The position numbers were made by a program, and so were the translations under genes. From assembly GCA_040757695.1 (NCBI GenBank), contig JBFLWK010000002.1, forward strand, positions 10,407-74,406: DNA of 64,000 nt, given 5' to 3'. This DNA is from Elusimicrobiota bacterium. Lineage in GTDB: Bacteria > Elusimicrobiota > UBA8919. Position 1 is the first letter of the stretch. Every line of letters starts with the position of its first letter. This document shows, in pieces, positions 3,233-47,953 of the stretch. Below the pieces are notes generated by a model. That model ran no database searches. It was not told the origin of the DNA and was given only the letters and a program-made list of their open reading frames with translations.

Positions 3233-3237
3233 CTGAT

Positions 3238-25637: not shown

Positions 25638-27833
25638 ATGTATAGGATACCACGCTTATTATCAATAGCCATTTCACTACTCGTTTTACCGGTAATACTC
25701 TATTCTGCTGGTGTAACTCCGGGAACGGTGATTACAAACGGTGGTGATTCAGGAACCATTGGCATGGTTGATACACCCGGCGATACGATTGTAACATGGC
25801 ATTCTTCACCTAATGGTATATCACCATTACCTGTTTCAGTTACCGTTACTACCGGCTATGCTATGATATGGGTTTCAACACCAGCCAGTCAACAGAACCT
25901 GATGCCCGGAGCAACTGTTTATTATCCATATCAGATTAGAAATTATGCAAATGGTTCAGATAGTTTCACAGTTGCAGTTGCAACTATTGCAGGTCAGAAC
26001 TGGCAACACCGAATTTATGCCGACGACAACCAAGACGGCACACATCAAGAAAATGAAACAACTATAAGTTCTACAGGGTTGCTCCTGCCCGATACTACAT
26101 ATTATTTCATAGTTGGGGTTAATGTGTCAACATCTGCAACTTCAGGGCAGACTTCAACATTTCGGCTCACAGTTAAAAACCAGAATGGCCAAGGCACAGA
26201 AGATAACTGGCATTCTGCAGGTAATGATACATTAACTCATGAGATTGTCTCAACTGTAGGGTTACTTCCACCCGCTACACCATCTAATTTCTACGCCACT
26301 TCAGTGACGGTTTCATCAATAACTTGGACCTGGACTGATAACGCAACAAATGAAGACGGCTATCGGTTATCGGTTATCGGTGTTGGGATTCAAGAACTAC
26401 CAGCAAATACAATCTCTACGACAACCACGAACCTCACACCAAACACATCATATTCTGCATATGTAGAAAGTTGGAATATTTCAGGTAGCAGTGCATCTGT
26501 TACCGTCTCAACCTATACACTTGCTAATCCACCGTCAGGAACGCAGATTACGCAGATAACAACAAATACGATTACGCTGATGTGGTCAAACAATAGTAAT
26601 CCGAATTATACGAGTTATGGGGTTTATCGGTCAACCAATGGCAGTTCCTTCTCACTTCTTGATTCTGGCGTCTTTACTTCTTATCTGTCCTCTAACCTCT
26701 CACCTCTAACCTCTTATTGGTATAAGGTTCAGGCAATTAACGAAAATGGTATCGCAACTGCATTTGATATAACGGTTTCTACAAGAACAAAATCGGCTGA
26801 TACTACACCACCGAAACCACCTTGCGGTGTAAGGGGGGAATTAATTGCCGAGCAACTTGCAAAAATTATTTGGTCAGAAGTTACAAAAAATACCGATGGA
26901 ACAACTTGTACCGATTTAGCGAAATATAAAATTTATTATTCTAATATACTGGAAGGGCCTTGGAAAGTGGCAACTGATGTTCCATCATCGTCTACCTTCT
27001 ACCTTCTACCTTCTACCTTTTCATTCAATTATTACAAAATTACTGCAGTTGACACCAGTGACAACGAAAGCGCTGATTCAGTATATATTGACAACACTGC
27101 AGCGCTTTCGGCAGTTACGAAAGAAAATGGTAAAATAGTCGCATTTGTAAAAATTCCACAGGATGTATCAGCTGTGCTCTATAAAGATGGGAAATATACC
27201 GACGATATTGTGATAAATATGCAGAAATTACAGGACGATGATGAACGGGATATCTATGTATATGACTTCCAGCCACAAAAATCAACAACTGGTGAAAAAA
27301 TAGATGATTTCAGGTTTGTTCAGCAGAAAATAGAAATAACATTTTTCTATGATTTGAATAATGATGATTATATTGAAAAAGTAGGCTTGCCAATTTCAGA
27401 AGCAAAAAGCTGGCTTTCTATATTCTATCACAACGGTGTTGAATGGGAAAAACTTGGTGGTGTTGTGAATGCTAATGAGAAATCAATCACAGCAAAAGTT
27501 ACTCATTTGAGTAAGTACAAGTTGAGAAAAACATTAAGAACTATTGGGTTTGGCGATTTACGAATGTATCCGAAAAAGATATTCGCACCATATGAAACAA
27601 ATGATACATATAATAGAATGAAATTCTGTTTTGAAAATGATTCCGAGAAACGAGTAACATTAAGAATATTTGATATTAAAGGTAGAGAGATTTTTAGTGA
27701 CTCAACAACCGATACAGAAATTTATTGGTATGGTAAAGATACCGACGATAAAGTTGTTTCCGGTGGCGTGTATATCTACCAACTTGAATGTGATAAAAAA
27801 GTAATAAACGGCACTGTGGTGGTAGTGAAATGA
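25638..27833 (+). CDS. secreted FN3-containing protein with T9SS-type C-terminal sorting domain
   Basis: 731 aa; N-terminal domain paralogous to 24584 ORF; FN3 repeats; C-terminus ...RIFDIKGREIFSD...GVYIYQLECDKKVINGTVVVVK; stop overlaps next start (ATGA). Confidence 0.7.
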   Translation: MYRIPRLLSIAISLLVLPVILYSAGVTPGTVITNGGDSGTIGMVDTPGDTIVTWHSSPNGISPLPVSVTVTTGYAMIWVSTPASQQNLMPGATVYYPYQIRNYANGSDSFTVAVATIAGQNWQHRIYADDNQDGTHQENETTISSTGLLLPDTTYYFIVGVNVSTSATSGQTSTFRLTVKNQNGQGTEDNWHSAGNDTLTHEIVSTVGLLPPATPSNFYATSVTVSSITWTWTDNATNEDGYRLSVIGVGIQELPANTISTTTTNLTPNTSYSAYVESWNISGSSASVTVSTYTLANPPSGTQITQITTNTITLMWSNNSNPNYTSYGVYRSTNGSSFSLLDSGVFTSYLSSNLSPLTSYWYKVQAINENGIATAFDITVSTRTKSADTTPPKPPCGVRGELIAEQLAKIIWSEVTKNTDGTTCTDLAKYKIYYSNILEGPWKVATDVPSSSTFYLLPSTFSFNYYKITAVDTSDNESADSVYIDNTAALSAVTKENGKIVAFVKIPQDVSAVLYKDGKYTDDIVINMQKLQDDDERDIYVYDFQPQKSTTGEKIDDFRFVQQKIEITFFYDLNNDDYIEKVGLPISEAKSWLSIFYHNGVEWEKLGGVVNANEKSITAKVTHLSKYKLRKTLRTIGFGDLRMYPKKIFAPYETNDTYNRMKFCFENDSEKRVTLRIFDIKGREIFSDSTTDTEIYWYGKDTDDKVVSGGVYIYQLECDKKVINGTVVVVK

Positions 27834-29266
27834 ATATAAACCAGAAGTCAGAAGTCAGAAGTCAGAAGTCAGAAGTCAGAAAATTTTTGCTTCTTTTTTC
27901 TTACTTCTTGCCTCTTGCTTCTTGTCTTTATGGGGCATTTGAAGATACTGGCACTGGTGCACGGCCAATTTCTATCGGCGCATATACTGCAATCGCTGAC
28001 GATGCAAATGCAATTTTTTATAACTCTGCAGGGCTTACAAATGTATTGTATCCTGAACTTTCATCCTGCTATGGCAAACTTTACTGGGGCTTAAACGGGC
28101 CTGATGAGTCTGCTCTATCTGATACATCTGTTGGGTTTGTCTATCCATCACATTTCGGCACATTTGGACTCGGCTGGCTCAATTTCGGGCTATCAGGTTA
28201 TTATTCTGAAAATACGATTCTGTTGTCATATGGAAGAGATGTTATTGAAAGAATATCTCTCGGAACTACACTGAAATATCTTACAAGAAAATACGGACAG
28301 GATATTTATACAATCAATTATGATATGTTTAAGAAAAATGGCTATTTACAAAACACGGTCAGCGGTGATATTTCAATTTTGTACAATTCTGCAAATTTGA
28401 GTTTTGCAGTTGTTGTAAAAGATGTTAATCAACCCGATGTAGGTCTCGGCAATAAAGATATTGTTCCACTACTCGTTAAATTTGCTACCGCATATAAAAT
28501 CAAAAACCTGAATCTCGGGCTTGAAACATTTTACAAAGATAAAAAATACGGAGTTATACTTGGTGGCGAAAAACTATTTGGTGAGTTTGCACTCAGGTCA
28601 GGTTTTGAATTCGGAACTGATGAATTACGGAATCTTAATCTCGGTTTCGGTTATAAGTTTGCAGAAAGATTCTTGATTGATTATGCAGTTTCGTATCCAT
28701 TTTCAGGTTTGAAAGAAATATACGGTACACATCGGCTATCTATCGGACTTAAATTTGGACCTCAGCCTAAAGACGAACTCTCAGAAGCTAAAAAAGAAAT
28801 TGACCGACTGACTGACGAAATCTTAAAACTTGAAGAATCAATACAAAAAGTTCAAGCCGAAAATATCAAACTTAAAGAGTCAAAAATAGCGCCCGAGAAA
28901 GAACCACAACAAGAACCGCAACAAACAGAAAAAATAGAAGTTGAACTTGATAAGAAAAAAATTATGAAACAATACTACGATAAAGGGCTGGATTATTATC
29001 AGAAAGGTGAATACAGAAATGCAATAGCCGAATTTAACGAAATCCTGAAATTCCAGCCAGACCATCAACAATCAATTCGGTTAATAAAACAATCAAAACT
29101 AAAAATAGAAGAATTAACCGCGGAACTTTATTACAAAGGGCTCAAAGAGTACACTAAAGGTAATGTAAAACAGGCAATATCTTATTGGCAGAAAGCACTT
29201 GAAATTGATACAGAAAATGATAAAATAAAGAATGCGTTAGAAAAAGCAAAAACAGAAATACGCTGA
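27830..29266 (+). CDS. PorV/PorQ-family-like outer-membrane beta-barrel with C-terminal coiled-coil and tandem TPR-like tail
   Basis: N-terminal GARPISIGAYTAIADDANAIFYNSAGL (PorV/PorQ-like signature as I recall it); C-terminal EYRNAIAEFNEILKFQPDH and VKQAISYWQKALEIDTEN; 5' region (CAGAAGT)x4. Confidence 0.5.
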   Translation: MNINQKSEVRSQKSEVRKFLLLFSYFLPLASCLYGAFEDTGTGARPISIGAYTAIADDANAIFYNSAGLTNVLYPELSSCYGKLYWGLNGPDESALSDTSVGFVYPSHFGTFGLGWLNFGLSGYYSENTILLSYGRDVIERISLGTTLKYLTRKYGQDIYTINYDMFKKNGYLQNTVSGDISILYNSANLSFAVVVKDVNQPDVGLGNKDIVPLLVKFATAYKIKNLNLGLETFYKDKKYGVILGGEKLFGEFALRSGFEFGTDELRNLNLGFGYKFAERFLIDYAVSYPFSGLKEIYGTHRLSIGLKFGPQPKDELSEAKKEIDRLTDEILKLEESIQKVQAENIKLKESKIAPEKEPQQEPQQTEKIEVELDKKKIMKQYYDKGLDYYQKGEYRNAIAEFNEILKFQPDHQQSIRLIKQSKLKIEELTAELYYKGLKEYTKGNVKQAISYWQKALEIDTENDKIKNALEKAKTEIR

Positions 29267-29279
29267 TTGCCGCTGATAA

Positions 29280-29440
29280 ACAACGCGGATTCCCGCTGAT
29301 TTGTCATTCCCGAATGCCCCTGTCGGGAATCCTTGTTTTCACGTGGACAGGTTCTACTCCTTTAATGGATTCCCAATAGAACCATTTGGGAATGACACCT
29401 CCGATAGAGTCATTCGGGGGCAGATTTTGTGTCATCTGCG
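29280..29440. repeat. GTCATTCCCGA / TCGGGAATGACA dispersed hairpin-repeat cluster
   Basis: Several attcccg-N-cgggaat hairpins; related copies at 2400-2520, 7770-7900, 35430-35540, 36490-36600. Confidence 0.6.
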
Positions 29441-29448
29441 ATTCTTAT

Positions 29449-30873
29449 ATGCGAATCAAGACAAAATTCTCTATTTTTGCGGTTTTACTTATAGTTGTCT
29501 GCGTCATTGCAGTCAGTTATTCTATTTTTCTGATAGAAAAAAAACTGCTTGTTGAAAACCAGAACCAGGAACTAACAAAAACGATTTCGCAGTTTTCTGC
29601 AGTTGCCAGAGAGGCAATAATTGCAAAAGATGATTTGCTGGCACTGAATTATTTGAAGGCATTAAAAAAAACAGCACTCGGGTTTGAAAATGGCTATCTT
29701 ATAAATAAATTAGGCACAATTATCGCAACAACCAATGCGGATTTGCTAAGAAAAAAGAAACTGCCTGATAAAAAAGATAATTCTATAAGAATCAGTAATG
29801 ATGTTATATCAGGCAATAAAAAAATTGGATTTGTTTGTATTGATTTCTCTGCAGAAGTACTAAAAAAATTGACTGATGAAAATATAAAAAAAATCGGATT
29901 TCAGGTTCTGCTCACTTCATTGCTTGTTCTGGTTTTTGGAATAATAATTTCGGTTATGTTTGCAGCAAAATTATCAAAACCTGTAAAAAAACTGGTAACC
30001 GAAGTTCGCGCTATCGCAGATGGTAATTTAGAGACCAAAGCAGATGTTCTGACAAAAGATGAAATAGGCGATTTGGCAAATGAATTTAATAAAATGGCTG
30101 TATCACTAAAGTATCTGGACCATCTAAAATCGGATTTTATCTCTAATGTATCACATGAACTGCGGTCTCCACTGGCTGCAATAGAGAGTTATATCAATCT
30201 TATGCTTGAAGATAAAGAAGAACTTAACTACGAAAATCTTGCAAAAATAAAAAATAATACTGCACGATTATCAAAATTTATTGACGACCTTTTAGATGTT
30301 TCTAAAATTGAACAGAAGGGTGGGGAAATATCCGAAAAAAAAGTGGTAAAATTAAATACTGTTGTTGAAGATGTTGTCTCGCTTTTTAAAGTGCAGACAG
30401 AAGATAAAAACCTAAAATTAGAAAATAAATTACCAGAAAAGTTGCCTGATGTTATCGCGAATAGTGAACGACTTAAACAGGTTTTTATCAATCTTATTTC
30501 AAATGCAATAAAGTTCACACAGGAAGGCGGAAAAATACAGATAGAAGCAAGAGGCAAGAGGCAAGAGGCAAGTAAAGGCAAAGAAGTTGATTCTACTGGC
30601 ATCTTGCATCTTGCATCCTGCATCGAAGTTGCAGTGGCAGATACCGGTATCGGTATCCCCAGTGACCAGTTAGCAAAAATTTTTGATAAGTTCCATCAGG
30701 TAAAAGGAACCGTAGATGAACTAAAAGGACCTAAAGGAACAGGGCTTGGACTCTCAATTGTTAAAGGAATAATTGAAGAGCATAATGGAAAAGTATGGGT
30801 AGAGAGCGAATTAAATAAAGGCACAACATTCTATTTTACACTACCTGTAAACCCAAATAACGGCACCGAATAG
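29449..30873 (+). CDS. sensor histidine kinase (2 TM helices, periplasmic domain, HAMP, HisKA, HATPase_c)
   Basis: H-box SHELRSPLAAI; N-box LISNAIKFT; G-boxes DTGIGI and GTGLGLSIV. In-frame (GCAAGAG)x3 / (CATCTTG)x2 insert in the ATP-binding domain. Confidence 0.8.
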   Translation: MRIKTKFSIFAVLLIVVCVIAVSYSIFLIEKKLLVENQNQELTKTISQFSAVAREAIIAKDDLLALNYLKALKKTALGFENGYLINKLGTIIATTNADLLRKKKLPDKKDNSIRISNDVISGNKKIGFVCIDFSAEVLKKLTDENIKKIGFQVLLTSLLVLVFGIIISVMFAAKLSKPVKKLVTEVRAIADGNLETKADVLTKDEIGDLANEFNKMAVSLKYLDHLKSDFISNVSHELRSPLAAIESYINLMLEDKEELNYENLAKIKNNTARLSKFIDDLLDVSKIEQKGGEISEKKVVKLNTVVEDVVSLFKVQTEDKNLKLENKLPEKLPDVIANSERLKQVFINLISNAIKFTQEGGKIQIEARGKRQEASKGKEVDSTGILHLASCIEVAVADTGIGIPSDQLAKIFDKFHQVKGTVDELKGPKGTGLGLSIVKGIIEEHNGKVWVESELNKGTTFYFTLPVNPNNGTE

Positions 30874-32112: not shown

Positions 32113-32193
32113 CGGAGGAAGCCAATGAAAAAATTGCAGATTGCAGATTGCAGATTGCAGATTGGTAGAAATTGGAACTGGAATTGGAAACGG

Positions 32194-32991
32194 ATGTCAT
32201 TGCGAGCGTTAGCGTGGCAATCTCGGTTTTGGGTTTTACTTTTTACCTTTCTACCTTTCCACCTTTCTACCTGCCTTTATGGACAGGATATGAAAGTGAA
32301 ACTGAACTCCGCAGACGGTTCTACCAGTTTCCAGGTGCGGGATTCTGCCGATGTTGTTGTAAGTTCCATAACATCCGACGGTAATATTCATACAAAATAT
32401 GGTGTAAAAGCAGCAACAGAATCAATTACAGGATTGTCAAGCGTATCAAGGAGTTCTGTGACATATGAGATTGTTGCAGCAAGCGCTTCCTTCACTGCAA
32501 CAGGAACTTACTCTATCATAACCAGTTCAGGGATAAGTCTCCCCGCAGGTGGCTTAAAGGACTTAACAGTAAAAAATGAAGATTTAATCATCACCTCAAC
32601 TTTTGTCTATGTTGCTAATACGAGTGGACTTGCTGAGCGTACGTGGACTGATACTGTGCCATTTTATGGAACACTGAACATAACGCAACAACCTGCTATG
32701 ATATATGCAGTTTTCACTACGAGTTGCTGCCGTACAGATAGTGGTTACCCAAAATTTGAATGGCAAATACTTGGAAATGGTTGCGGTCTTTCTTGGAACG
32801 TTATGGGTTATAGTGGAGGACAGTTACAGGCAGCAAATTATACTGGTTGGTCTTGGCTTGTGACTTGCGTCGGCGTGAAAAGGGTCACGCAGACGGGAAC
32901 CCTCACTGTGAAGGTACAGGACCAGCACTGGGGAAATATGAATCTCTCTGAATCAAATTTCTCTGCATTCTGGTTCCCATGTGGCCCGTAG
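32194..32991 (+). CDS. secreted hypothetical protein (Cys-rich C-terminus)
   Basis: ATG at 32194 lies inside a GTCATTGCGAGCG repeat; signal peptide ends HLSTCLYGQD. The 32125 start would add a (GCAGATT)x4 repeat-encoded leader. Confidence 0.45.
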   Translation: MSLRALAWQSRFWVLLFTFLPFHLSTCLYGQDMKVKLNSADGSTSFQVRDSADVVVSSITSDGNIHTKYGVKAATESITGLSSVSRSSVTYEIVAASASFTATGTYSIITSSGISLPAGGLKDLTVKNEDLIITSTFVYVANTSGLAERTWTDTVPFYGTLNITQQPAMIYAVFTTSCCRTDSGYPKFEWQILGNGCGLSWNVMGYSGGQLQAANYTGWSWLVTCVGVKRVTQTGTLTVKVQDQHWGNMNLSESNFSAFWFPCGP

Positions 32992-33350: not shown

Positions 33351-35396
33351 ATGCACACCTATATAACTACTAGATGGAAAGATGGAAAGATGGAAAGATG
33401 GTTAGGTAATAGATTTTCCTTTCTATCTTTCTATTTTTCTATCTTTCTATCTCTCTATCTTTCTACCTGCCTTTATGCAACTGCATCTGCACCGAAAGTG
33501 GTTGAGGATGGTGTACTGTTCACATTTGACGCAAAGAATGCACATAAAGTATATTTAGCCGGCTCTTTTAAGAAAGATAATGATGGGAATTCAGTGGTTA
33601 ATTTCAGCGAACTTGTAACGGTAACTAAAAAACGGCTCTTGGTTGAAGGTCGGATTCTAAAACCGTTAATTGTTGAAAAAATCAAAAAAAATTTGGATAG
33701 CATTTATATAAAAAAAATAGTCCTGCATAAAATCTGGATAAAACCAAATGAAGAAACGAAAGTTACTGTAGATATAGAAAATATAGAGAGTAAAAAAAAA
33801 GATACTACACTTGTGTTTTATGTTAAAAAGTTTGACAACCAAGTATTAGCACAAAAAGAAACAAAAAAAATAGAGAAATCTATAACATTTGAAATCCAAA
33901 CAAAAAGTTACAGTGAAGACGGTTATATTTTTGAGTTTGAATTAAAAGAAAAAGAAAAAGTTATAGATAGAGAATATGAAGTTATTTCAATAGTAAAAAA
34001 TATTTCTGATGATTTAAGATACGGCTTCTATGCAAACTGGGATAAAATCGGCGCTGACTACAAGAAGAAAACCGACTATTTTGCACAACTGCATATCAAT
34101 GCGATTGAGTATTACGATTATTTTCCAGCACACGGTTATTACGCACCTAAAGAAAAAATGTATAAATCTGAGCCATTCGGTATAACGATTTTAGCCGACG
34201 ATATTCAGCAAAAAATTGATTCTGCACGAGACCGAAATATCCTGTCTGTTGCATATGTTGCTGCATATTCGGCTTCTAAATCTATTTATGAAAAATACCC
34301 GTATCCAATGACTGATGAAAAAGGCAACCCGAAAGTTTTTAATGGTAGTATCACAACAGAACTTGACGCCAAAAACCAAAACAAGGATATCTGGTTTTAT
34401 CTGATGGCAATCGCACAGGATACTAAATGGTATTCTTACATTATGGAACAGTTCAGAAAAACGATGGATAATTCTGCTGATGATTTGGTTTCATTTGATG
34501 GTTTTGAGATTGATTCTTACGGTCATTCCAAAAACGAACGATACTATAGTGCAAGTAGTAAATATAATGGTGAACTGTTGAGCACAATTATTATGACTTT
34601 TGTGAATGCTGTTCGTAAAATAGCACATAAAATTAAACCTGATTCTGTTGTATCGTTTAATTGTGTCAACGAATACGGTATAGAGCAAATGTGTAATATA
34701 GTGGATTTCCTATTCATAGAGAATTGGGCGGGTTATAAAAGCGGCTTAGAAGATTTAGTTGATATCTGCTATAAAAACCGTGTGGCTAAAAATCAGCGGG
34801 TAGTAATCAAACTCTATCCAGCGGATACTGTGGGCAGTCCAAAAATATTCTCAAAAGAATGTCTGAAATACTTACTCGGTGCTGCAATGACCGGCGGCGG
34901 CTCCGTTATGGTTGCCGGCGAGCCTGACGAACAAAACAACCGAATGCATGCGTTGAATACGCTTTATTATCCTGATAATGTCGCAATGCCCGACGACAAT
35001 TTTGGTATCTTAAAAAATTATTATACTTTTGATACACTGCTATACAGAATCACACACGGCAAAAATGTGAATAACCTGAAGTCAGATTTTGAACTACCGG
35101 ATTGTATTACAAGAGAATTTTTATCAAATAGATATATCGTGGTAAGTATTTTGCATAACGGCAACAACAGTGAATGGAATCAAAAAGTTGCCACACCGAA
35201 TACATTAGAAAACTACGAAATTGCTTATACTCTGCCTAAAAACAAAAAACCAGTCGCGGTCTATTATGGAACGCCGGATTACGAGGAATTACTAATACCT
35301 AAATCATTAGATTGGGAGTTAAAAGACGGATATATTCGGACACTACTGCCGAAACTTGAAACTTACGGTGTTTTAATAATAGAAACAATACAATGA
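33351..35396 (+). CDS. lipoprotein with putative TIM-barrel glycoside-hydrolase-like C-terminal domain (family uncertain; GH66/GH114-like suspected)
   Basis: 681 aa; repeat-built signal peptide ending YLSTCLYATASA; C-terminal FAQLHINAIEYYDYFPAHGYY. Sits next to ABC sugar transporter genes. Confidence 0.45.
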   Translation: MHTYITTRWKDGKMERWLGNRFSFLSFYFSIFLSLYLSTCLYATASAPKVVEDGVLFTFDAKNAHKVYLAGSFKKDNDGNSVVNFSELVTVTKKRLLVEGRILKPLIVEKIKKNLDSIYIKKIVLHKIWIKPNEETKVTVDIENIESKKKDTTLVFYVKKFDNQVLAQKETKKIEKSITFEIQTKSYSEDGYIFEFELKEKEKVIDREYEVISIVKNISDDLRYGFYANWDKIGADYKKKTDYFAQLHINAIEYYDYFPAHGYYAPKEKMYKSEPFGITILADDIQQKIDSARDRNILSVAYVAAYSASKSIYEKYPYPMTDEKGNPKVFNGSITTELDAKNQNKDIWFYLMAIAQDTKWYSYIMEQFRKTMDNSADDLVSFDGFEIDSYGHSKNERYYSASSKYNGELLSTIIMTFVNAVRKIAHKIKPDSVVSFNCVNEYGIEQMCNIVDFLFIENWAGYKSGLEDLVDICYKNRVAKNQRVVIKLYPADTVGSPKIFSKECLKYLLGAAMTGGGSVMVAGEPDEQNNRMHALNTLYYPDNVAMPDDNFGILKNYYTFDTLLYRITHGKNVNNLKSDFELPDCITREFLSNRYIVVSILHNGNNSEWNQKVATPNTLENYEIAYTLPKNKKPVAVYYGTPDYEELLIPKSLDWELKDGYIRTLLPKLETYGVLIIETIQ

Positions 35397-35399
35397 AAC

Positions 35400-35570
35400 C
35401 GCAGATGAACGCAGATATACGCAGACGCCGTTCCCGTCCCGTATGTGTCATTCCCGCGAAAGCGGGAATCTACGGGATAAACTCCAGCGGGAATCTACAA
35501 TTATGGATTCCCGATAGAGACACTCGGGAATGACACTTCGTGTCATCTGTGTTCTCAGTGTTCTCTGTGG
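35400..35570. repeat. left arm of ~150-bp inverted repeat (ACGCAGAT iterons + GGGAATGACA hairpins)
   Basis: Near-identical reverse complement of 36461-36655. Confidence 0.8.
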
Positions 35571-35580
35571 TTAAAATTAG

Positions 35581-36456
35581 ATGAAAAAAACAATAAAAGA
35601 AAACCTTACGGGCTATGCGTTTCTTTTACCAAATATCTTGGGCTTTCTGGTATTTGTTTTTTTGCCAGTTTTCGCATCGCTGGTCTTAAGTTTTTTTGAA
35701 TGGGATCTGTTCAGTACACCTGTTTTCGTCGGTGTCGCTAATTTTGTGAAACTGGTCAAAGACACTTATTTCTGGAAATATCTGTTGAACACACTGTTCT
35801 TTATGCTTGGAATACCTGTTGGAATGGCGGTCTCTTTACTTTTTGCAATAATGATGAATCAGAAAATCAAAGGAATCGTATTTTTCAGAACTGTTTATTT
35901 TATGCCAGTTGTCTCGTCATTTGTCGCCTGCGCACTGCTCTGGCGATGGATTTATAATCCTGATTTCGGGCTCTTGAACGGGCTGTTAAAAATGGTTGGC
36001 ATAAACGGTCCTGCATGGCTTTCTTCAACAACTTGGGCTAAACCAGCAATTATTTTGATGAATATCTGGAAAGGTGCAGGATATAATATGCTGCTTTATT
36101 TAGCAGCACTTCAAGGCATTCCGGATTTTTTATACGAAGCTGCAGAAGTGGATGGCGCAGACATTTGGAATAAATTCTGGCATATCACTTTTCCATTGCT
36201 TTCACCAACACATTTCTTTATTATCATTATGAGCGTAATTGGTGTCTTCCAAACATTTGGCGAGATATTTATGATGACAGGTGGCGGACCCGGTGGCTCA
36301 ACCACGACAATCGTTTATTACATCTATAATAATGCATTCCAGTGGTTCCATATGGGTTATGCATCGGCAATCTCTTGGGCACTTTTTGCGCTGATTTTTG
36401 GCGCTACTATTCTTCAATGGAAATATACTGCCAAATTCAGAGAACTAACATATTAA
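35581..36456 (+). CDS. ABC sugar transporter permease (MalF/UgpA-like)
   Basis: 291 aa, 6 TM; EAA-like loop LAALQGIPDFLYEAAEVDGA. Confidence 0.85.
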   Translation: MKKTIKENLTGYAFLLPNILGFLVFVFLPVFASLVLSFFEWDLFSTPVFVGVANFVKLVKDTYFWKYLLNTLFFMLGIPVGMAVSLLFAIMMNQKIKGIVFFRTVYFMPVVSSFVACALLWRWIYNPDFGLLNGLLKMVGINGPAWLSSTTWAKPAIILMNIWKGAGYNMLLYLAALQGIPDFLYEAAEVDGADIWNKFWHITFPLLSPTHFFIIIMSVIGVFQTFGEIFMMTGGGPGGSTTTIVYYIYNNAFQWFHMGYASAISWALFALIFGATILQWKYTAKFRELTY

Positions 36457-36460
36457 AAAA

Positions 36461-36655
36461 ATGAAACCACAGATAAACACAGATGAACACAGATGACACG
36501 AAGTGTCATTCCCGAGTGTCTCTATTGGGAATCCATAATTGTAGATTCCCGCTGGAGTTTATCCCGTAGATTCCCGCTTTCGCGGGAATGACACATACGG
36601 GACGGGAACGGTGTCTGCGTATATCTGTGTGCAATCTGCGTAATCTGCGTTCAAA
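36461..36655. repeat. right arm of ~150-bp inverted repeat
   Basis: Reverse complement of 35400-35570; compared base-by-base by hand over ~150 nt. Confidence 0.8.
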
Positions 36656-36658
36656 AAT

Positions 36659-37468
36659 ATGGTAAAAAAAATTATTACTTATTCAATACTGATATTTGGC
36701 GCAGTTGTAATGCTCGCACCGTTTCTGTGGATGCTCTCTACATCGTTAAAAGAGCCCGGTGCAGTGTTTGTATATCCGCCAAAATGGCTGCCTGTGCCTG
36801 TCCGATGGCGAAATTATGTTGATGCATGGAATGCGGTTCCGTTTGGCAGGTTCTTCCTGAATTCTATTCTTGTCTCTTTATGCGTTACAATCGGGCAGGT
36901 GCTCACATCATCGCTTGCTGCATATGCGTTTGCGCGGCTGAGTTTCAAAGGCAGAGATAAAATATTTTTAGGCTATCTCGCTACAATGATGATACCATTC
37001 CCAGTAACAATGATACCGGTTTTTATCTTAATCACAAAATTGCAACTGATTGATTCTATACAAGCACTGATACTACCGGGGCTTTTTACCGCATATGGAA
37101 CTTTTATGTTAAGGCAGTTTTTTCTGTCTATCCCGAAAGAATTAGAAGAGGCGGCAGTGATTGACGGTGCGAGCAAATTCAGAATCTGGTGTCAGATAAT
37201 CATGCCTTTATCAAAACCGGCATTAGCAACACTGGCAACATTCACATTTATGGGCACCTGGAATGATTTTATGTGGCCATTGATTGTGATAAAAACAAAA
37301 ACAAAAATGACACTACCAGTCGGGCTGGCATCGTTTCAGGGAATGTATTATACCGACTGGACGCTCCTTATGGCTGCAAGTGTGATTGTGCTTCTGCCAG
37401 TGCTGTTGGTTTATATATTCAACCAACGATTTTTTGTTAAAGGTATCGCCTTAACAGGACTTAAGTAG
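36659..37468 (+). CDS. ABC sugar transporter permease (MalG/UgpE-like)
   Basis: 269 aa, 6 TM; EAAVIDGASKFRIWCQIIMPL EAA motif. Confidence 0.85.
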   Translation: MVKKIITYSILIFGAVVMLAPFLWMLSTSLKEPGAVFVYPPKWLPVPVRWRNYVDAWNAVPFGRFFLNSILVSLCVTIGQVLTSSLAAYAFARLSFKGRDKIFLGYLATMMIPFPVTMIPVFILITKLQLIDSIQALILPGLFTAYGTFMLRQFFLSIPKELEEAAVIDGASKFRIWCQIIMPLSKPALATLATFTFMGTWNDFMWPLIVIKTKTKMTLPVGLASFQGMYYTDWTLLMAASVIVLLPVLLVYIFNQRFFVKGIALTGLK

Positions 37469-37476
37469 GGGGGATT

Positions 37477-38877
37477 ATGCAAAAAGTGGCTAAGTGGTTT
37501 GTTGACTTCAAGTGGTTAAGTGGTCAAGTGAATAGATGGTTTGGTGGTCAGGTGGTTAGGTGGTTAGGTTTGGTTTTCCTATCTACCTATCTACCTATCT
37601 ACCTATCTACCTGCTTTACCGGTTGCAGGAAAAAAGATGGGAAGTTAAAAGAAGGCGAGGTAGAACTTGAATATATGATGTGGGGTGAGCCGGATGAATT
37701 AAAAACGGTAACCGAGTACTTGAAACAATTTGAAGAAAAGTTCCCTAAAATCAAGATAAAAATACTGCATACCCCACAAAATTACGACGATAAACTAAAA
37801 ACGATGTTCGCTGCACATACACCGCCGGATGTTATGTATGTCGGGCTTGAGACATTCCCATCATTCGCAACCCGCGGTGTGCTTTTAGACCTCAATCCAT
37901 ATCTTGAACGAGATAAGCAGGAGTTTAACCTTAACGATTTTTATCCGGAACTGATGAAATGTTTTGAATACGATGGAAAGTATTACGGGATTGCAAAGGA
38001 CTTTACACCGTTAGTTTTGTATTACAACAAAGATATGTTTGATAAAATGGGGGTAAAATATCCGAATAAGAAGGGTGGGTGGAAATGGGCTGATTTTTTA
38101 GATGCTGCAAAAAAACTGACTGTTGATTTTAATAACGATGGTAAAATAGACCAGTACGGGTTTGTATTAGAGACATGGTTTCAAGAATGGGCACCTTGGG
38201 TTTGGCAGAATGATGGAAAAATAATGAGCGATGATAAAAAGAAATGGCTGCTCGGCTCACCTGAGTATATTGATAGAAATTCAGAAGCAGTCCAGTTCCT
38301 TGCGGATTTGGTCTGGAAACATAATGTCGCACCGAGACCAACTGTGACAACTGATTTTGGTACTGCGGATATGTTTATGACTGGCAAAGTGGCTATGTGC
38401 ACTTACGGTAGATGGATGTGTATGCAATTCAGGCATATAAAAGATTTTAAGTGGGATATCGCACCACTGCCGTATAACAAAAAACGGGCTGCTACGCTTT
38501 TTGTTGTCTGCTACGGTATCGCAAACGAATCCAAACATAAAGAAGAGGCATGGCAACTTATAAAGTACTTGATGAGTAAAGAAGGGCAGGAATTGGTTGC
38601 AGAAGCAGGTCATGCTATACCGTCTTTGAAATCAGTTGCAAAGTCAGACCGTTTCCTGAAAGCGAAAGTGATTACTCAGCCGATAGATGCAAAGGTTTAT
38701 CTTGATTCAATAAAATATGCTCAACCGACACCGACAAATCCATACTGGGTTGAAATAAATGAGTTATTAGGCAGAGAGATTGATTGGGTCTGGCAGGGTA
38801 AAAAACCAGCCAAAGAAGTTTTAGAAACAATTCAGCCACAGATAGAAAACCTGCTATCAAAATATTATGTAAAATAA
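37477..38877 (+). CDS. ABC sugar transporter substrate-binding lipoprotein
   Basis: 466 aa; paralogous to 1021-2286; leader built from AAGTGG/AGGTGG and CTACCTAT repeats ending YLSTCFTGC. True start may be an internal GTG. Confidence 0.8.
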   Translation: MQKVAKWFVDFKWLSGQVNRWFGGQVVRWLGLVFLSTYLPIYLSTCFTGCRKKDGKLKEGEVELEYMMWGEPDELKTVTEYLKQFEEKFPKIKIKILHTPQNYDDKLKTMFAAHTPPDVMYVGLETFPSFATRGVLLDLNPYLERDKQEFNLNDFYPELMKCFEYDGKYYGIAKDFTPLVLYYNKDMFDKMGVKYPNKKGGWKWADFLDAAKKLTVDFNNDGKIDQYGFVLETWFQEWAPWVWQNDGKIMSDDKKKWLLGSPEYIDRNSEAVQFLADLVWKHNVAPRPTVTTDFGTADMFMTGKVAMCTYGRWMCMQFRHIKDFKWDIAPLPYNKKRAATLFVVCYGIANESKHKEEAWQLIKYLMSKEGQELVAEAGHAIPSLKSVAKSDRFLKAKVITQPIDAKVYLDSIKYAQPTPTNPYWVEINELLGREIDWVWQGKKPAKEVLETIQPQIENLLSKYYVK

Positions 38878-38959: not shown

Positions 38960-39582
38960 GTAGACGGCAATTAATTGCCGTCTACGGAAGGAGATAAATA
39001 TATGGGCAAAATTCACAGGTTTTTGGAAAAAGGTGCGGTTCATTTTGTAACAACTAATACTATAAATCGTGTGAAAATTTTTAATGATGAAGTTTCTGCA
39101 AGATTTCTGTTATTATGTATTGGGTATCATAAGTTTATGCTTAATTTTTACCTTCTGGGATATGTGATTATGCCAGACCATTTACATATGTTGTTGCAGA
39201 TTTTAAGCGAGAAATATAATCTATCTGTTATTATGAAGCAAATCAAAGGCAATTTTGCCCGTAAATACAACGAATGGTATCAAAAAAACCAACCCACAGG
39301 TAGTCGGCGTTTAAACGCCGACTACCTGAAATGGGATTATAGAGGGTTTTCATACAAACCTGTATGGCAGGAAAGTTTTTATGACACTGCATTACGAGAC
39401 CCAAAACAAGTTCGTGAAAAAATAGAATATATGCATTGGAATCCCGTCAAAGCAGGGATTGTTGACCACCCTAAAGATTATGAATTTTCAAGTTATCACC
39501 AGTATTACGGTGAAAAAAGATTATGGATACAAATCCCTATAGAAAAATTTATAATTTAATACGGCATTTAATTGCCGTCTAC
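38960..39582 (+). mobile_element. RAYT family-1 cassette: REP palindrome - RAYT gene - REP
   Basis: 5' GTAGACGGCAATTAATTGCCGTCTAC (38960-38985), 3' ACGGCATTTAATTGCCGTCTAC (39561-39582); same architecture as 62614-63222. Confidence 0.7.
39002..39559 (+). CDS. REP-associated tyrosine transposase (RAYT; IS200-like Y1 HuH transposase, COG1943-like)
   Basis: HuH motif PDHLHMLL; C-terminal YMHWNPVKAGIVDHPKDYEFSSY. SD GGAAGGAG upstream of ATG 39002; ~80% identical to 62656-63210. Contains an internal perfect 28-nt palindrome at 39299-39326. Confidence 0.75.
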   Translation: MGKIHRFLEKGAVHFVTTNTINRVKIFNDEVSARFLLLCIGYHKFMLNFYLLGYVIMPDHLHMLLQILSEKYNLSVIMKQIKGNFARKYNEWYQKNQPTGSRRLNADYLKWDYRGFSYKPVWQESFYDTALRDPKQVREKIEYMHWNPVKAGIVDHPKDYEFSSYHQYYGEKRLWIQIPIEKFII

Positions 39583-42500
39583 ATTGTAATAGGTATTTCT
39601 TACCTTTATGGGTCATTTACTATAACTGCGGGGACGGCTACGCTTTCTGATTTCACAACTGTTGATATTTCAAGCGATGTTGCAATTGATGCAGGTGCAG
39701 TGTTCGTAGCAAGCGGTGGTGTTATCAATATAGGCAGAAACTGGACCAAAAATGATACCGGTATTTTTGATTTCGGCACCTCAACCATTACATTTTATAC
39801 AACATATACAAGCACACTTACAGGCAATACCACTTTTTACTGTTTTCGTTGCGAAACCTCAGCAAAAGAATTGCAATTTACCGAAAAGTCAACCCAGACG
39901 GTAACAAATATATTCACACTAACAGGTGCTTCGGGTAATTTGATAAAACTGCGGTCAACAGTTGACGCTTCTTTATGGTATATTCAATTCCCAAACAGCG
40001 CTCAATCGGTTGATTATGTAGATGTTAAGGACTCATCTGCCTGTATAAAAACGGTTACCGCTAACTATTCTACTGATTCCGGGAACAACTTTAACTGGAT
40101 ATTCCCGAATAACCCGCCGACAATTTCAGGACTTACTCAACTTGCTGGGAGTGAGGCTTTAGCCTCAATGCAATGGACAAATTCGTCATTAATCATTTCG
40201 TCATTCACACTTCAAGACCCGCAAGCAGGTGATACTGTAAAGTTTTATCTACACGTGACTTCAGTCACAAGTGGAAGTTCTGCTGACTGGTCACAGCCAT
40301 TTTTCTGTACAACATCTGCATATCTATCGCAAGGGACTACAGGATACCTGTGGACTACACTAACCGATAAAGCAACATACTGGTGGCGATGCTGGGCAGA
40401 AGACAGTCAAGGTGCCACATCGTCCACAAATACAACACTCGGTCAGGGCGGTGTCGCAAAATTCGCCTTTGATAACAAGCCACCGGATGCTATCTCAAAT
40501 CTTACCGCACTCACAGGCACACAATACGATGGTGATATATTACTCAAATGGACTGCACCCGGTAGCGATGGTGCAGTTGGCGATTTCTCAGGTCAATACC
40601 ATATCAAATGGTCTACAAGAACAGAAAATATTACAAATTTTGACTCCCCACCATATCCTACATATGAACGGTATGTAAGTAGTTCTATAATAGCACAACA
40701 AGAACAGGTATTCACAATGACTGGTTTAAATCCAGGCACAACTTATTATTTCGCAATTGAAACGATAGATACCGCCGGGAATACAGCATCATGGTCAACA
40801 GTCGGTGTCAATACAGCCAACCGAAATTATGCTTTGGACTTAAATCCTAATCCACCACCTTCACTTTCTGCAATTTCCAACTCCTCAACAACTATCAATC
40901 TGTCCTGGGAAAAACCTGTCCCTCTATATATTGATGATATTTCGTATTACCATATTTTTCGTGCTACATTTACATTCACAAGCACAACAACACTGAATGT
41001 TATTTTGGTAGATACCGTTACTCATCCTACTGATGTTCATATATCAACAGGACTCGCTATCCATACAACCTACTACTACCGGATAGTTACTTTTGATAAA
41101 GGTGATACAGACCCCGGGCTTATAAGTTATGTGTTGAACTCTATTACTTCTACGATAGTAAACGCCTGTCCGCAACCGACTGCCTCTGAAAAAGTAAAGG
41201 TAAGCGTGGTCTATGATAACCGTTCTTCTACAAATACAAACAATTACGGGCTTATTGATGGTATTGAAGATGCAGATGGTACTGTCACCTGGGATTGGCC
41301 ATTTATACCTGATGGTGGGAATATCACCAAATACGAGATTGAGGTCTCAACAGATATAAATTTTTCATTCTACTCATCTTCTGCAGCGCTTTCATCAACT
41401 GTTTCTACATATACCGCAACGGGTTTAGTGCGTGGAAAATATCATTATGCGCGTGTCCGTGCCACAAATGACGAAGCCATCACAGGTAGTTGGACTGCTT
41501 CAGACGGTATCTATGTGAATGCAAAAACGGTTGACGGCTCGCTTGCCGATTGGTCAACTTTTAACCTATCAACATATAACTTTATAACTACCTATCAAGG
41601 TGCAGGAAACTGGCGTGAGGCGGTCTGGATTGATACAACTACTGACGAGCGTGGTGCAGATGATAACCAGCCAAATTATACACAACTGGATATCGCTACA
41701 TTTTCAATTACTTGTGATGAATATAATCTTTATATGTATGTGCTTTTTGCTTCCAGTAATACCGGTGGTAGTTCGCCTGTTTTTGATGGCAGGAATTTTG
41801 TACAAATTTTAATTGACAATGGTAACATCTCTGCAGAACGCGTCTTCCGTGGTCGTGGTGATAAATACGAGGACAGTTATGTCTCAAAATATGTTTCCTG
41901 GGAATATCTATGTGAGATTGTAACAGGTAACGACCAGTTTCGTGTAGAAGATAATTTATTCACTAACCGCCAGTATGGAAAGTATACAGAAAATAACAGC
42001 GGCTACTTTTATGAAGTTGCAATGCCATTATCAAAATTAGGTGGCAGTAGCAAATTTTTAGGCAAAACGGTTAACTTCACAGTTGCAACATTCTGGAATG
42101 ATGGTGACGCTATCGGCAACTGGTCACCTGCAACAAATTCTAATATAGTAGATGTAGTAAGTTCATCAGGACCTGCTACTTGGAATGAAGTTGAAGGCAG
42201 GATTGTTGACCATTATCTCGCAATCACATTTTCTACATTTGGCTATGTTAGTTCTGCTACTTCTACACTATCAACAACATCTTCAATCCCGGATGAGCCA
42301 GAAAACGCATCAAACGGTGTCTCACCCTGCCCGCCTTCTGCACTGGACTATATTATGTATCGGCTTTTCCCGGATGCATGGTATAACGGCGATACTACTA
42401 ACGACGATATCGGCGATACTAACGATTACGGTGGTGATTTCCAGGGTGTTATAGATAAAGTGGACTACCTCAACGAGATGGGAATCAATATGGTTTATTT

Positions 42501-45500
42501 CGGGCCTTTCCATGAAAATGGTGGCGGTATCTGGGGCTACAATATTGACGATATCTACAAGCACGAAGGTAAGTTCGGTGGTACTTCCAAATATATTGAG
42601 ATGATGAAAACACTCAGAAACCATAATATCAAAGTAATGATGGACTGGGTACCGGGTCAGGTTGGTGGACCTGATTCACCAACTGCGAAGAAGCATCCTA
42701 CATATTATCAGCCGGAGCAGTTTTCTACCTCTGGCGGTGGCACAAAACAGGAATATGCAGAACCACGCGCACTTTATCTCAACAATCTCATCTGGAATAT
42801 GTCAATAACAGATGCTGTCCGTTTTGATAACCCCAAATTCTGGGATAATGGTCTCGGACCTGAACAATATGAGTTTAATAGAGCGTTGAGGAAACTTACT
42901 GACCGCTGGGACCCGCAGTACTACCTCTTTTCTGAGATACCAGAAACCGCTGGCGATATCAATAACTATACAGGAAATAACGGGCCGATGCTACACGGTG
43001 GCGAGCAGATGAAAGTAGGTGGGTATAAAGAAGGTGGGCAGTATTATATCAGTTCGTGGGCTATGCCCAAGGGTACTGTTGGTGTGGCTGCTGAAGCTAA
43101 TAATAGACATAGTAACGCAGATGGCTGGAATACTTCTCAAGTTTGTAGAAATAGTTTAGATAATGAAGAAATCAATTGGAAAAACGAGTGGGCGATAAAC
43201 GCAACAATTATGGAAAGCCATGATGAACGAAGATTCATCAGCAGATCTCGTGGAGATGATGGTGCTTCCTGGGGATATGATTCTCAGGTTGGTTATATGG
43301 CAGCAATCACACTCGGTGGGCCTTTAAGTATTATGTATGGTGGTGAAGTCGGTCTTGAAGGTCCTTACGATGGCTCACAAAAAGCAAAAATGGATATCAA
43401 CGGCAATGTTCGGCTAATGGAGTTTGATAGAGTTAATGTTGACCCGTGGACTAATGTTAGACCCGCTATCCGGCGAGCAATTCAAGCAAAAGCAAATTTC
43501 GCACCATTGCGCGGCGATCCCCAAGAAGGCGGTCGCGGATGGTATAACGGAACAGATGCTGCCGAGTTTGATACAAATATTCTTGGATGTTCAAGAACTG
43601 GCTGGGGTCAGAAAGCAATTGTCTTCTGGAACTGGTCAGCAGGTGATATAACCCTGCCAGCTCTTATAGGCACAGGTGATGCAAGCACAAGTTATAAGGA
43701 CTGGCTTACCGATGCTGGATATACAACGAATGCGTCCGGACAGTTCACAACTACAATTGTAGTGCCATCACATTACGGAAGAATTCTGATTCGTGGTGGT
43801 TATGACTGGGTAAACTGCACAGGCACCGTTACAAGTGGTGGCTCACCTGTCGCAAACGCTGTTGTTGATATTGACCAGAAATCACACTGGACTGTGATGA
43901 CTGATGCGAATGGTTATTATTCTATTTCAGGCAATTTAAGAAAGATATTAACCGGAAGTCATACTATACGCTGCTGGGCGGATGGCTATAATATCGCAAC
44001 CACAGATGTTAATTTCACAACCGCACTCATAAATAATGGTGTTGATTTTACATTAACAACAGATAATACACCACCATCAGCACCATCAACACTCGCTGCA
44101 CAGCCAAGAAGTGAAGCAGTGATGCTTTCCTGGCAGCCAAATACAGAATCGGATTTTCAGTCGTATCTTATCTATCGCTCGTCAACAGAACCTATACCCG
44201 ATGGCTCATTCCCAGAACCAGTTTTTGAGGTATTCAAAACATTTTATTATGATAACAATCTTGACGGACAATTAGACAGCAACGACAATGTCTACGACCG
44301 GATACAAAATGGAACTACATACTACTACCGTATCCGTGCGGTTGATAGGAACGGTAACAAATCTGCATTATCTAATCAAATTACTGTAATCCCAAGAGCT
44401 GTAAAAGTAAAATTCTGGCTGGATGCGCGGGATTCCGGACTCACCATAACATCTGCTACTGTAACTGGCGGTGCACTCGCATTCGGGAATGCTACATATG
44501 GCAGTTGGCCCAACGGTTTGGCAATGGATGAAGTTGTAGACGGTGTTTTTCAGAAAGAGGTTGAGTTTGACGATACAATATTTTTGGAATACAAATATAA
44601 ACTTCACAATGGTAATAATGTTTGGGAGGGTAGTAGTGGTCAATTGTTCCTTGACGGGCCTCAACAAGGTCACAACCGTGGTGAACTTTACAAATATAAC
44701 CAGTCAAATAGTGTGAATGAAAACGAGCAGGTGCCTGATATTGAAATAAAAGATGAAGGCAATGGCGAGATGATATTAGCGGATAAATGGCAATACTATA
44801 ATGACCAAGCACCAAGAACACCACAAGGGCTTGAAATCACCGCAGGACCGAATCAACTAACTGTTGGATGGACGGCAAATGCAGAGCCGGATTTGAATTA
44901 TTACACAATCCGTACTTCTAATACTGCCGATAGTACACTTAAATATGTGCAGGTATCAAGTGCAGCAATCAATTATGTTGACCTCGGGCTAACTAATAAT
45001 GTTACCTATTTCTATTCTGTTTCCGCTACTGATAGACGAGGCAATACATCCGGCTATTCTTCTGTAATTTCGGACTACCCGAGAGCAACTGATACATCTG
45101 CACCTTCTACACCAACAGGGCTTGAAGCAGTAGGCGCAGGCACTGATGGCTTGACTGCAATCAAAGTAAAATGGTCGCAAAATTACGAAGGTGATTTAGC
45201 AGGATATAATATCTATAAATCAACTGTGTCAGGTTTCACACCCGACACTACAAATAAATTGAATTATACGCTTATCTGCCCAACCGCTACTTATTATACC
45301 GATTCTAATATCACAACCGGCACTACTTACTATTACAAACTCGCAGCAGTTGATTCTTCAGGCAACAGTTCACCGTATACCTCACAACTCTCTGTGAATT
45401 TATTCCCAATCACTTTTGAAGTAGATATGGGTAATATCACATTAACAAATGTCCAGATTATCGGTGATACAGAACCACTTGACTGGACCACATCGATAAA

Positions 45501-47940: not shown

Positions 47941-47953
47941 AAAAACAAAAAAT

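Follow-up and report, generated by a model that had tools for sequence, protein, structure and literature searches.

The repeat ATTCCC-N8-GGGAAT, known in Neisseria as dRS3, has been assigned to the CGTC-1 family of repetitive extragenic palindromes (REPs), the members of which carry a CGTC or TGTC (or CCTC) tag, have an AT-initiated 8-bp stem and a 4-nt loop, occur mainly as inverted dimers and have no associated transposase (Di Nocera et al. 2013, PMC3733652). In a 2025 study the oriented 28-mer was renamed the Neisseria Transformation Sequence (NTS); its published partner is the small GIY-YIG nuclease SsnA, which cleaves the NTS in single-stranded DNA, and a degenerate Ssn-related motif (SRM) was defined that occurs across phyla (PMC11893778). 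Here we describe hairpins of this kind in a stretch of 64,000 nt from an Elusimicrobiota bacterium (assembly GCA_040757695.1, contig JBFLWK010000002.1, positions 10,407 to 74,406 of the forward strand; hereafter the window). In a sugar ABC transporter operon of this stretch, the first of two adjacent permease genes (permease 1) lies between the arms of a long inverted repeat. We consider it probable that the arms are two copies of a non-coding, REP-like composite of ~176-190 nt, resembling a miniature inverted-repeat transposable element (MITE), that occupy adjacent intercistronic spacers of the operon, and that their inverted geometry is incidental.

A long inverted repeat encloses permease 1

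A repeat search found positions 35406-35554 to be the reverse complement of positions 36485-36633 over 149 nt at 97 % identity, with 930 nt between them. This pair is the longest inverted repeat of the window; its mismatches are four in number (35408, 35411, 35427 and 35513) and its longest perfect stretch is 85 nt. Gapped alignment stretches the homology to the full extent of arm 1 and arm 2 given in Table 1, and all indels between the arms are confined to their outer tandem arrays. The original prediction had described a near-perfect inverted repeat of ~150 bp around this one gene, and both the repeat and the sequence quoted for it proved correct, as did the statement that permease 1 is the sole gene enclosed (it is the only open reading frame (ORF) between the arms).

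The fit of the arms between the coding sequences is close. Arm 1 begins directly past the stop codon of the upstream gene (TGA, 35394-35396) and ends 8 nt ahead of the ATG of permease 1, and arm 2 begins 4 nt past the stop codon of permease 1 and ends 8 nt ahead of the next ATG, that of permease 2. The arms fill almost entirely the two spacers, which measure 184 nt (upstream gene to permease 1) and 202 nt (permease 1 to permease 2).

Among other assemblies, exact permease 1 was found only on a 990-nt contig of the Logan assembly of run SRR29635779 (L001; loci used for comparison are designated by L and a number). This contig is 100 % identical to the window and joins the gene to the arm-specific inner ends of both arms. 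It ends inside both arms, at the points where they become identical, and is hence silent on the orientation of permease 1; such ends would be the expected behaviour of a de Bruijn graph with k = 31 at a true inverted repeat. Because L001 reproduces both arm-specific inner ends at 100 % identity, the two arms are separate, real loci. Inverted repeats are a known source of assembly error, and the Logan contig does stop within both arms. It is nevertheless scarcely credible that a metagenome assembler duplicated a single repeat copy in inverted form, given that the inner sequences to which the contig links the gene at its two ends are distinguished by indels (TTCTCAGTGTTCTCTGTGG versus CCACAGATAAACACAGATGAACACAGATG) and that the arms differ by 4 substitutions and several indels, which an artefactual duplication does not produce. 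(Exact matches to permease 2 and to the neighbouring Y1 transposase were also sought in other assemblies, and there were none.)

Each arm is a composite of REP-type hairpins

In its sense orientation an arm opens with CGCAGAT units repeated every 10 nt (the 5' array) and the linker GCCGTTCCCGTCCCGTATG. Next come the hairpin TGTC-ATTCCCGC-GAAA-GCGGGAAT-CTAC and the half-unit GGGATAAACTCCAGCGGGAATCTAC, then GGATTCCCGATAGAGACACTCGGGAATGACA, which is an inverted hairpin whose loop has 9 nt, and ATGACAC-TTCG-GTGTCAT, a small hairpin. The arm closes with ATCTGTG-type units in a 3' array that terminates in GTGGTT. The core of ~120 nt is a dimer of ATTCCC…GGGAAT hairpins with their tags pointing outward, nested in the stem formed by the CGCAGAT and ATCTGTG arrays, and the NTS units of both arms point toward permease 1. 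Because the outer arrays of an arm pair with each other, with G of the 5' array opposite T of the 3' array, each arm makes up one long branched hairpin. The terminal inverted repeats that characterize MITEs are present, both at the outer ends (AACCRCAGAT…ATCTGYGGTT) and at the ends of the core (TGTCATTCCCG…CGGGAATGACA), and the GC content of the arms is 47-51 % compared with 39.8 % for the window.

Both arms fold strongly. Arm 1 has a predicted folding energy of -82.9 kcal/mol as RNA (z = -7.5) and of -43.9 kcal/mol as DNA (z = -8.2), and arm 2 reaches -76.0 kcal/mol as RNA of the + strand (z = -5.7) and -85.2 kcal/mol on the - strand, which is its own sense strand. Transcription of the operon as a single RNA would allow either arm to form a very stable local hairpin. 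The divergence between the arms is unevenly distributed: the arrays differ by 4 substitutions in 55 aligned positions and by 18 gap columns, and the core by 1 substitution in 119 positions without gaps (Fisher p = 0.035).

The hairpin belongs to a known and widespread family

The published SRM pattern, HGTCWYN(0-2)YYVSBRHN(0-5)WNVSBRGN(0-2)RNCYNB, has two matches in the window, one in each arm and on opposite strands (Table 1), as compared with 0.18 +/- 0.38 matches in 50 dinucleotide shuffles of the window. Exact matches to the dRS3 core ATTCCC-N8-GGGAAT lie within them (35450-35469 and 36570-36589). As in CGTC-1 REPs, a TGTC tag is left unpaired and is followed by an 8-bp stem that begins with AT, a 4-nt loop (GAAA) and a short 3' tail, here CTA where the CGTC-1 consensus has CCA. 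Moreover, the hairpins form inverted dimers with a spacer in the family range of 20-100 nt, since 31 nt separate the NTS unit from the long-loop unit in each arm (35473 to 35505 in arm 1). The Neisseria NTS consensus, CGTCATTCCCGCGMAVGCGGGAATCYRG, was not matched with at most one mismatch, the limit used in PMC11893778: there are two, T for C at the first base and C for G at the last. The hairpin is therefore a relative of the SRM class rather than a canonical Neisseria NTS. Taken together, the tag, stem, loop and dimer arrangement support the assignment of the arms as composite members of the CGTC-1 REP/dRS3/NTS hairpin family.

The 24-mer hairpin sequence GTCATTCCCGCGAAAGCGGGAATC is not specific to this genome. 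Together with the dimer pattern it occurs in at least 120 metagenome contigs from many environments, and the plain 24-mer is found in 109 viral contigs; its contexts elsewhere include simple inverted dimers and mosaics with a 77-nt period that are typical of Neisseria. Among 325 exact external copies, 165 have an inverted partner (100 are homodimers, 40 have an NTS-like partner and 25 have a long-loop partner, as here), 38 more are accompanied by another GGGAATGAC partner, and 121 lack any partner. What other loci have in common with the arms is the core alone (about positions 50-140 of the arm) and not the CGCAGAT arrays. The closest external relative of the core lies in L151; it matches across 122 nt at 79 % identity and has the inner half-unit in common with the arms, a module present also upstream of the orthologous permease in L013.

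Inside the window the decamer GGGAATGACA occurs 11 times, as against 0.19 expected, and relatives of the arms range from an older, diverged member with the same layout to a CGCAGAT-array hairpin that has no GGGAAT core (Table 1). An intergenic mosaic at 2390-2530 consists of TGTCATTGTGAGCGAAGCGAAACAATC, a unit that is TGTC-tagged but of a different sequence type, then TGTCATTCCCC… and a ATTCCCGAATG…CGGGAATCC unit; it looks like a small cluster of the kind formed by Neisseria intergenic or bacterial interspersed mosaic elements (NIMEs and BIMEs). The original prediction had pointed to family members at 2400, 7770 and 29290, and these were found near 2400, 7790 and 29300. Its proposal of two MITE-like copies inserted in opposite orientation is supported in a refined form, as composite members of the CGTC-1 REP/dRS3/NTS family in spacers that are short elsewhere. 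The CGCAGAT "iterons", by contrast, turned out to be tandem arrays with a 10-nt period (CGCAGATnnn x3) of a type common throughout the window, with nothing to tie them to replication.

Comparison with described repeat systems

The arms resemble CGTC-1 REPs and dRS3 in their TGTC/CGTC tag, 8-bp stem starting with AT, 4-nt loop and short tail, in forming inverted dimers with 20-100-nt spacers, in being intergenic and in having no associated transposase. They differ in that the dimer is a heterodimer of a 4-nt-loop and a 9-nt-loop unit, has an extra half-unit in its spacer and is embedded in an array stem with a 10-nt period; the host, moreover, is an elusimicrobial bacterium and so lies outside the five phyla listed for CGTC repeats (PMC3733652). 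The likeness to the NTS and SRM consists in the exact pattern match, in a Neisseria consensus that differs at the first and last base only, and in the arrangement NTS-gene-NTS around a membrane-protein gene, a configuration that has been discussed for Neisseria (PMC11893778). In contrast to Neisseria, where the repeats form large clusters, there are two discrete composites here, 97 % identical, and no ssnA-like gene lies in the 64 kb. Like MITEs and the Correia elements (CREE) of Neisseria, the arms measure ~150-200 nt, have terminal inverted repeats, are intergenic and presumably co-transcribed, fold strongly and could serve as a substrate for inversion (PMC3454330). Unlike them, they have no target-site duplication and, within the window, no related autonomous element, and are built from REP-type hairpins as blocks rather than from a deleted insertion sequence.

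With BIMEs and NIMEs the arms share a mosaic of inverted hairpin units and linkers located between genes of one operon, with which they are presumably transcribed, and with stable hairpins predicted in the mRNA. REP hairpins between cistrons are known, for example, from malE-malF of E. coli. The unit family is a different one, however, and here two near-identical composites lie in opposite orientation around a single cistron. Finally, in the REPIN/RAYT system inverted REP doublets form one long hairpin that is thought to move via single-stranded DNA, and the window does contain three genes like those for REP-associated tyrosine transposases (RAYTs). These genes, which encode Y1_Tnp proteins, are nevertheless flanked by GTAG-type palindromes of their own (GTAGACGGCAATTAATTGCCGTCTAC; ACCCGACTTTAGTCGG) and not by GGGAAT hairpins.

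Both arms are insertions relative to orthologous operons

Permease 1 is directly followed by permease 2 in 80 related operons of reference genomes, and one locus, L015, keeps the order of all four genes, with a spacer of 9 nt between the upstream gene and permease 1. Where it was read, the permease 1/permease 2 spacer is short: ~20 nt in L013, and no more than a few tens of nt in each of L002, L004 and L015. The exception is L007, in which it is ~235 nt long and carries an unrelated hairpin repeat. A metagenome-assembled genome (MAG) of Elusimicrobiota (L311), with a permease 1 that is 76 % identical, has spacers of 0 and 29 nt and no GGGAAT hairpin. Likewise, L313 (74 % identical; run SRR13662870) has 68 nt upstream of permease 1 and no GGGAAT hairpin, and its contig ends downstream of permease 1. 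Spacers at both sites are generally 10-30 nt long in the orthologous operons, and because these operons mostly have spacers of 0-30 nt at both sites, both arms represent insertions. Note that in L313 (2987-3075) the sequence immediately past the permease 1 stop codon is CCACAGATGAACA…AAACACAGA, placed around a different hairpin, CCCCGATGCCCATCGGGG, which suggests that array-type elements were present at this spacer before the GGGAAT core.

The best relative of permease 1 is 71 % identical in reference genomes and 74-76 % identical in protein searches. Compared with the same pair of neighbouring genes in L311, permease 1 is 76 % and permease 2 is 77 % identical, and the GC content of permease 1 (38.8 %) is close to that of the window (39.8 %). 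Because its identities to the same relatives match those of permease 2 and its GC content is ordinary, permease 1 is native to the operon; the idea that it is a foreign cassette was ruled out on these grounds. (A separate observation concerns L013, a MAG of another lineage with a permease 61 % identical, in which a mosaic, GTCATTCCTGC…/GATTCCCGCTGGAGTTTACCCC…GGGAATGACA, lies at 5760-5935 just upstream of the orthologous permease 1; no element is present between its two permeases.)

How the copies may have arisen

The copies would have been disseminated by way of single-stranded DNA and without duplicating their target sites, in line with what has been proposed for REP- and NTS-type hairpins. 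Permease 1 is surrounded by a long inverted repeat simply because the two copies lie in opposite orientation. Since spread would be of the REP/NTS kind, with SsnA as the partner of the NTS and no dedicated transposase known, the inverted geometry is probably incidental and does not point to a dedicated switch. The outcome is probably twofold: very stable hairpins on either side of the permease cistron in the polycistronic mRNA, comparable to REP and BIME elements in other operons, and a persistent, if small, risk of inversion by homologous recombination, an event that would disable the transporter.

Several observations weigh against this account. The comparison with "empty" sites relies on operons whose proteins are just 60-76 % identical. 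A target-site duplication was sought by alignment at both arms and none was found: in element orientation arm 1 is flanked by …AATGA and AAAATTAG and arm 2 by …TTTTG and TCATTTTT, without a common direct repeat. (This absence is in keeping with REP-like movement rather than classical MITE transposition.) No mobilising enzyme was found, and a GIY-YIG or ssnA-like gene is absent among the ORFs scanned in the window. The near-identity of the arms (1 substitution in the 119 nt of the core) could reflect gene conversion between them, in which case the arms do recombine. Lastly, the 64 kb hold two full and about three degenerate copies, and a full-length copy is present in none of the other loci compared.

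Other routes of mobilisation were considered. An autonomous element with the same ends was not found in the window. The three RAYT-like proteins were rejected as mobilisers: when they were compared by tblastn with 310 loci, 229 of them hairpin-bearing, a single adjacent fragment was found (in L129), in addition to a weak match in the operon locus L016. This result (1 of 229 loci) agrees with the published lack of a dedicated transposase for CGTC repeats. Recurrent small ORFs beside NTS copies were clustered in a search for an ssnA-like partner and gave only noise from Neisseria prophages. With a single ssnA to hundreds of NTS copies per genome, such clustering is not informative. Inversion by intramolecular replicative transposition was discarded as well, since it would leave the gene antisense and the gene is in sense orientation.

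Alternative explanations

It is conceivable, although we think it rather unlikely, that the CGCAGAT stems already existed in both spacers and that only the ~120-nt NTS-dimer core was inserted, twice and recently, into the loops of these stems, in which case the core and not the composite would be mobile. The concentration of divergence in the arrays beside a near-identical core would fit such a nested double insertion, as would the "empty" CGCAGAT hairpin at 58085-58150, the presence of CCACAGATGAACA past the permease 1 stop codon of L313 with another central hairpin, and the description of REP dimers within target palindromes (PMC3733652). Tandem arrays mutate fast by slippage, however, so that higher divergence of the arrays is expected regardless, and the two arms do not differ at their array-core junctions. 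Outer stems of at least 10 nt around NTS dimers elsewhere are enriched, a point in favour of nesting, but only slightly (7 % versus 2.4 %), and for this reason a general nesting of NTS dimers in outer palindromes was rejected. An improbable but more functional explanation is that the arms were kept for a role in the mRNA, either as local hairpins that stabilise or insulate cistrons or as an arm-arm duplex of ~170 bp from which the permease ORF protrudes as a loop and whose cleavage by RNase III would uncouple the expression of the four genes. The arms are placed exactly between stop and start codons, an effect of REP and BIME elements on mRNA stability is known (reviewed in PMC3733652), and the outer arrays, because they are asymmetric in G:T, form G.U pairs on the sense strand of the element. 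In addition, pairing between the arms is favoured thermodynamically: the predicted energy of the arm-arm duplex is -335.8 kcal/mol, as compared with -81.9 and -74.4 kcal/mol for the local folds (sum -156.3), and 169 inter-arm pairs are present in the structure of minimum free energy for the entire 1271-nt segment; co-transcriptional folding, on the other hand, favours the local hairpins. Arm 2 is antisense to the operon; in the mRNA its outer stem contains A.C mismatches, and the arm folds ~9 kcal/mol less stably than on the other strand, which speaks against selection acting on the mRNA. Orthologous operons manage with no such element, and Rfam gave no match either in the whole window at gathering thresholds or in 35300-36750 at E <= 1, which also counts against an RNA element.

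Arms of 149 nt at 97 % identity with an 85-nt perfect run exceed the minimum for homologous recombination and are enough for recombination of the RecA type. Rare inversion, an event raised in the original prediction, is accordingly physically possible, and nothing here indicates a programmed switch. We regard it as very unlikely that permease 1 is flipped by such recombination often enough to matter biologically and so to create ON/OFF heterogeneity in the transporter. The greater likeness of the cores than of the flanks is compatible with gene conversion between the arms, and inversion breakpoints in Neisseria are reported to carry repeat arrays, dRS3 and Correia elements (PMC3454330). A nearby invertase or recombinase, for which the original prediction had proposed to look, was not found: the Pfam scan covered all ORFs of at least 110 aa except the giant repeat ORFs at 8193-24557 and 39523-47886, together with selected ORFs of at least 45 aa outside large ORFs, and revealed no serine or tyrosine recombinase (and no integrase) among the ORFs scanned in the 64-kb window. 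Known invertons have short repeats (roughly 10-40 nt) and an adjacent recombinase. They resemble this locus in having a defined segment bracketed by an inverted repeat; here, however, the arms measure 149 nt, the scan found no recombinase nearby and the segment is a whole internal gene of an operon rather than a promoter or part of a gene, with a single orientation on record. Moreover, inversion would leave the first permease antisense in a co-directional operon, which amounts to loss of function and not to a promoter switch, and consensus scans for promoters and terminators gave sites no more frequent than in shuffles. The gene is sense-oriented in both assemblies, but the second (L001) ends in both arms and does not speak to orientation. 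Equally remote is the idea that permease 1 is a cassette that can be flipped or excised, either through Ssn-type breaks or nicks at the opposed NTS hairpins or through RecA acting between the arms, that is, an ON/OFF switch without a recombinase; if true, it would amount to phase variation of a sugar transporter built from REP-type repeats.

Features of the locus and of the window

The coordinates of the operon, of the arms and their parts, and of related elements are collected in Table 1.

Table 1. Operon genes, parts of the two arms and related elements, with positions in the window.
Feature	Position	Strand	Basis
Partial or degenerate member: GGATTCCCGATTGAGGCACTCGGGAATGACA, then CGCAGAT x2	7768-7893	+	
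Older, diverged member laid out like the arms: CGCTGAT arrays, ATTCCCG hairpin dimer with outward tags, GTGTCATCTGCG	29255-29455	+	
Upstream gene, 681 aa, no Pfam match, lipoprotein-like N-terminus	33351-35396	+	
Arm 1, complete 176-nt composite repeat	35397-35572	+ (sense strand of element)	Homology to arm 2
Outer 5' array, CGCAGAT(nnn) x3, 10-nt period; pairs with 3' array, including G:T positions	35400-35426	+	Folds
NTS/SRM-type hairpin TGTCATTCCCGCGAAAGCGGGAATCTAC, dRS3 core ATTCCC-N8-GGGAAT	35446-35473	+	Exact SRM pattern match
Inner module GGGATAAACTCCAGCGGGAATCTAC, half-hairpin unit, also in L151, L262 and L013	35474-35498	+	Sequence comparison
Long-loop hairpin unit TGTCATTCCCGAGTGTCTCTATCGGGAATCC, inverted dimer partner of the NTS	35505-35535	-	Inverted-repeat search, dimer classification
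Small hairpin ATGACACTTCGTGTCAT, then outer 3' array of ATCTGTGTTC-type units with GTGGTT end	35530-35572	+	Array scan, alignment
Permease 1, 291 aa, BPD_transp_1, intact, enclosed	35581-36456	+	Pfam
Arm 2, 190-nt copy in inverted orientation, between permease 1 and permease 2	36461-36650	-	Homology to arm 1
Long-loop hairpin unit of arm 2, TGTCATTCCCGAGTGTCTCTATTGGGAATCC	36504-36534	+	Inverted-repeat search
NTS/SRM-type hairpin of arm 2, 28-mer identical to that of arm 1	36566-36593	-	SRM pattern match
Permease 2, 269 aa, BPD_transp_1	36659-37468	+	Pfam
Solute-binding protein, SBP_bac_1, lipoprotein-type N-terminus encoded by paired octamer arrays	37477-38877	+	Pfam
CGCAGAT-array hairpin GGACGCAGAT…ATCTGCGTCC without GGGAAT core, "empty" form of the outer stem of the arms	58085-58150	+	

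Tandem arrays of 7-10-nt units fill the window (for example, 1031-1118, 8225-8256, 27842-27924, 32133-32272, 33372-33465, 37512-37612, 48722-48810, 53135-53241 and 56560-56642). They often occur as adjacent pairs: first a purine-rich array, then a pyrimidine-rich array that is partly complementary to it, G facing T. Of the 64 arrays, 22 fall in the first 150 nt of ORFs, a zone that makes up 7.3 % of the window. These translate to N-termini resembling signal peptides, with a charged n-region and a hydrophobic h-region followed by …LSTC or …FTGC (MHTYITTRWKDGKMERWLGNRFSFLSFYFSIFLSLYLSTC is an example). That tandem repeats able to form hairpins should encode signal peptides looks unusual, and it may be more novel than the inverted repeat itself.

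Arrays also surround genes elsewhere. A 77-aa ORF (54202-54435, in the region 54159-54495) matches PF05635, the family of 23S rRNA-intervening-sequence proteins, over the C-terminal half of the family model (E = 7.5e-7, with a score under the gathering cut-off) and is bracketed by inverted heptamer arrays, AGATAGG x5.6 at 54165-54203 and TATCTGC x7 at 54443-54491, which makes it a second small gene enclosed by arrays. Two further inverted heptamer arrays, of the TTGCTTC type at 27896-27931 and of the AGAGGCA type at 30541-30576, are 81 % complementary and lie 2.6 kb apart; the span between them holds a TPR gene and most of a histidine-kinase gene. The giant ORFs at 8193-24557 (5454 aa) and 39523-47886 (2787 aa) have repeated modules of ~340-360 nt, and their coding repeats contain heptamer arrays such as TATCTCC x3.7 and ATCCCCT x4 (three heptamers preserve the reading frame). 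Matches to fn3 and CHU_C belong to a separate ORF, 25638-27833. A 21-nt tandem repeat, GATGATGACAAGTACCTAGGG, is present at 3240-3422 in ~7.8 copies with a super-period of 84 nt; the 1.2 kb in which it lies (2287-3483) hold no convincing gene.

The three IS200-like Y1 transposase genes of the RAYT type lie at 38975-39559, 47954-48526 and 62656-63210, the first and third being 78-86 % identical at the DNA level. Palindromes of the GTAGACGGCAATTAATTGCCGTCTAC type are found at 38946, 39286, 39543, 62600 and 62928, and those of the ACCCGACTTTAGTCGG type at 47812-48563, including a 36-nt tandem repeat (x2.6) at 48456-48547. All 31 of the substantial ORFs of the window are on the + strand, an unusually long co-directional stretch.

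Implications

The locus extends the CGTC-1/dRS3/NTS family, best known from Neisseria and alphaproteobacteria, to a genome of the Elusimicrobiota, and it presents a new packaging of the family, in which a heterodimer nested in the stems of tandem arrays is probably copied as a unit. Repeat pairs of this kind break short-read assemblies, as seen with the Logan contig, and will trigger pipelines designed to find invertons, so that recognising the arms as REP-type insertions prevents phase variation from being claimed in error. Proof of inversion or of mRNA processing at the arms would make this locus a simple natural example of selfish hairpin repeats rewiring an operon.

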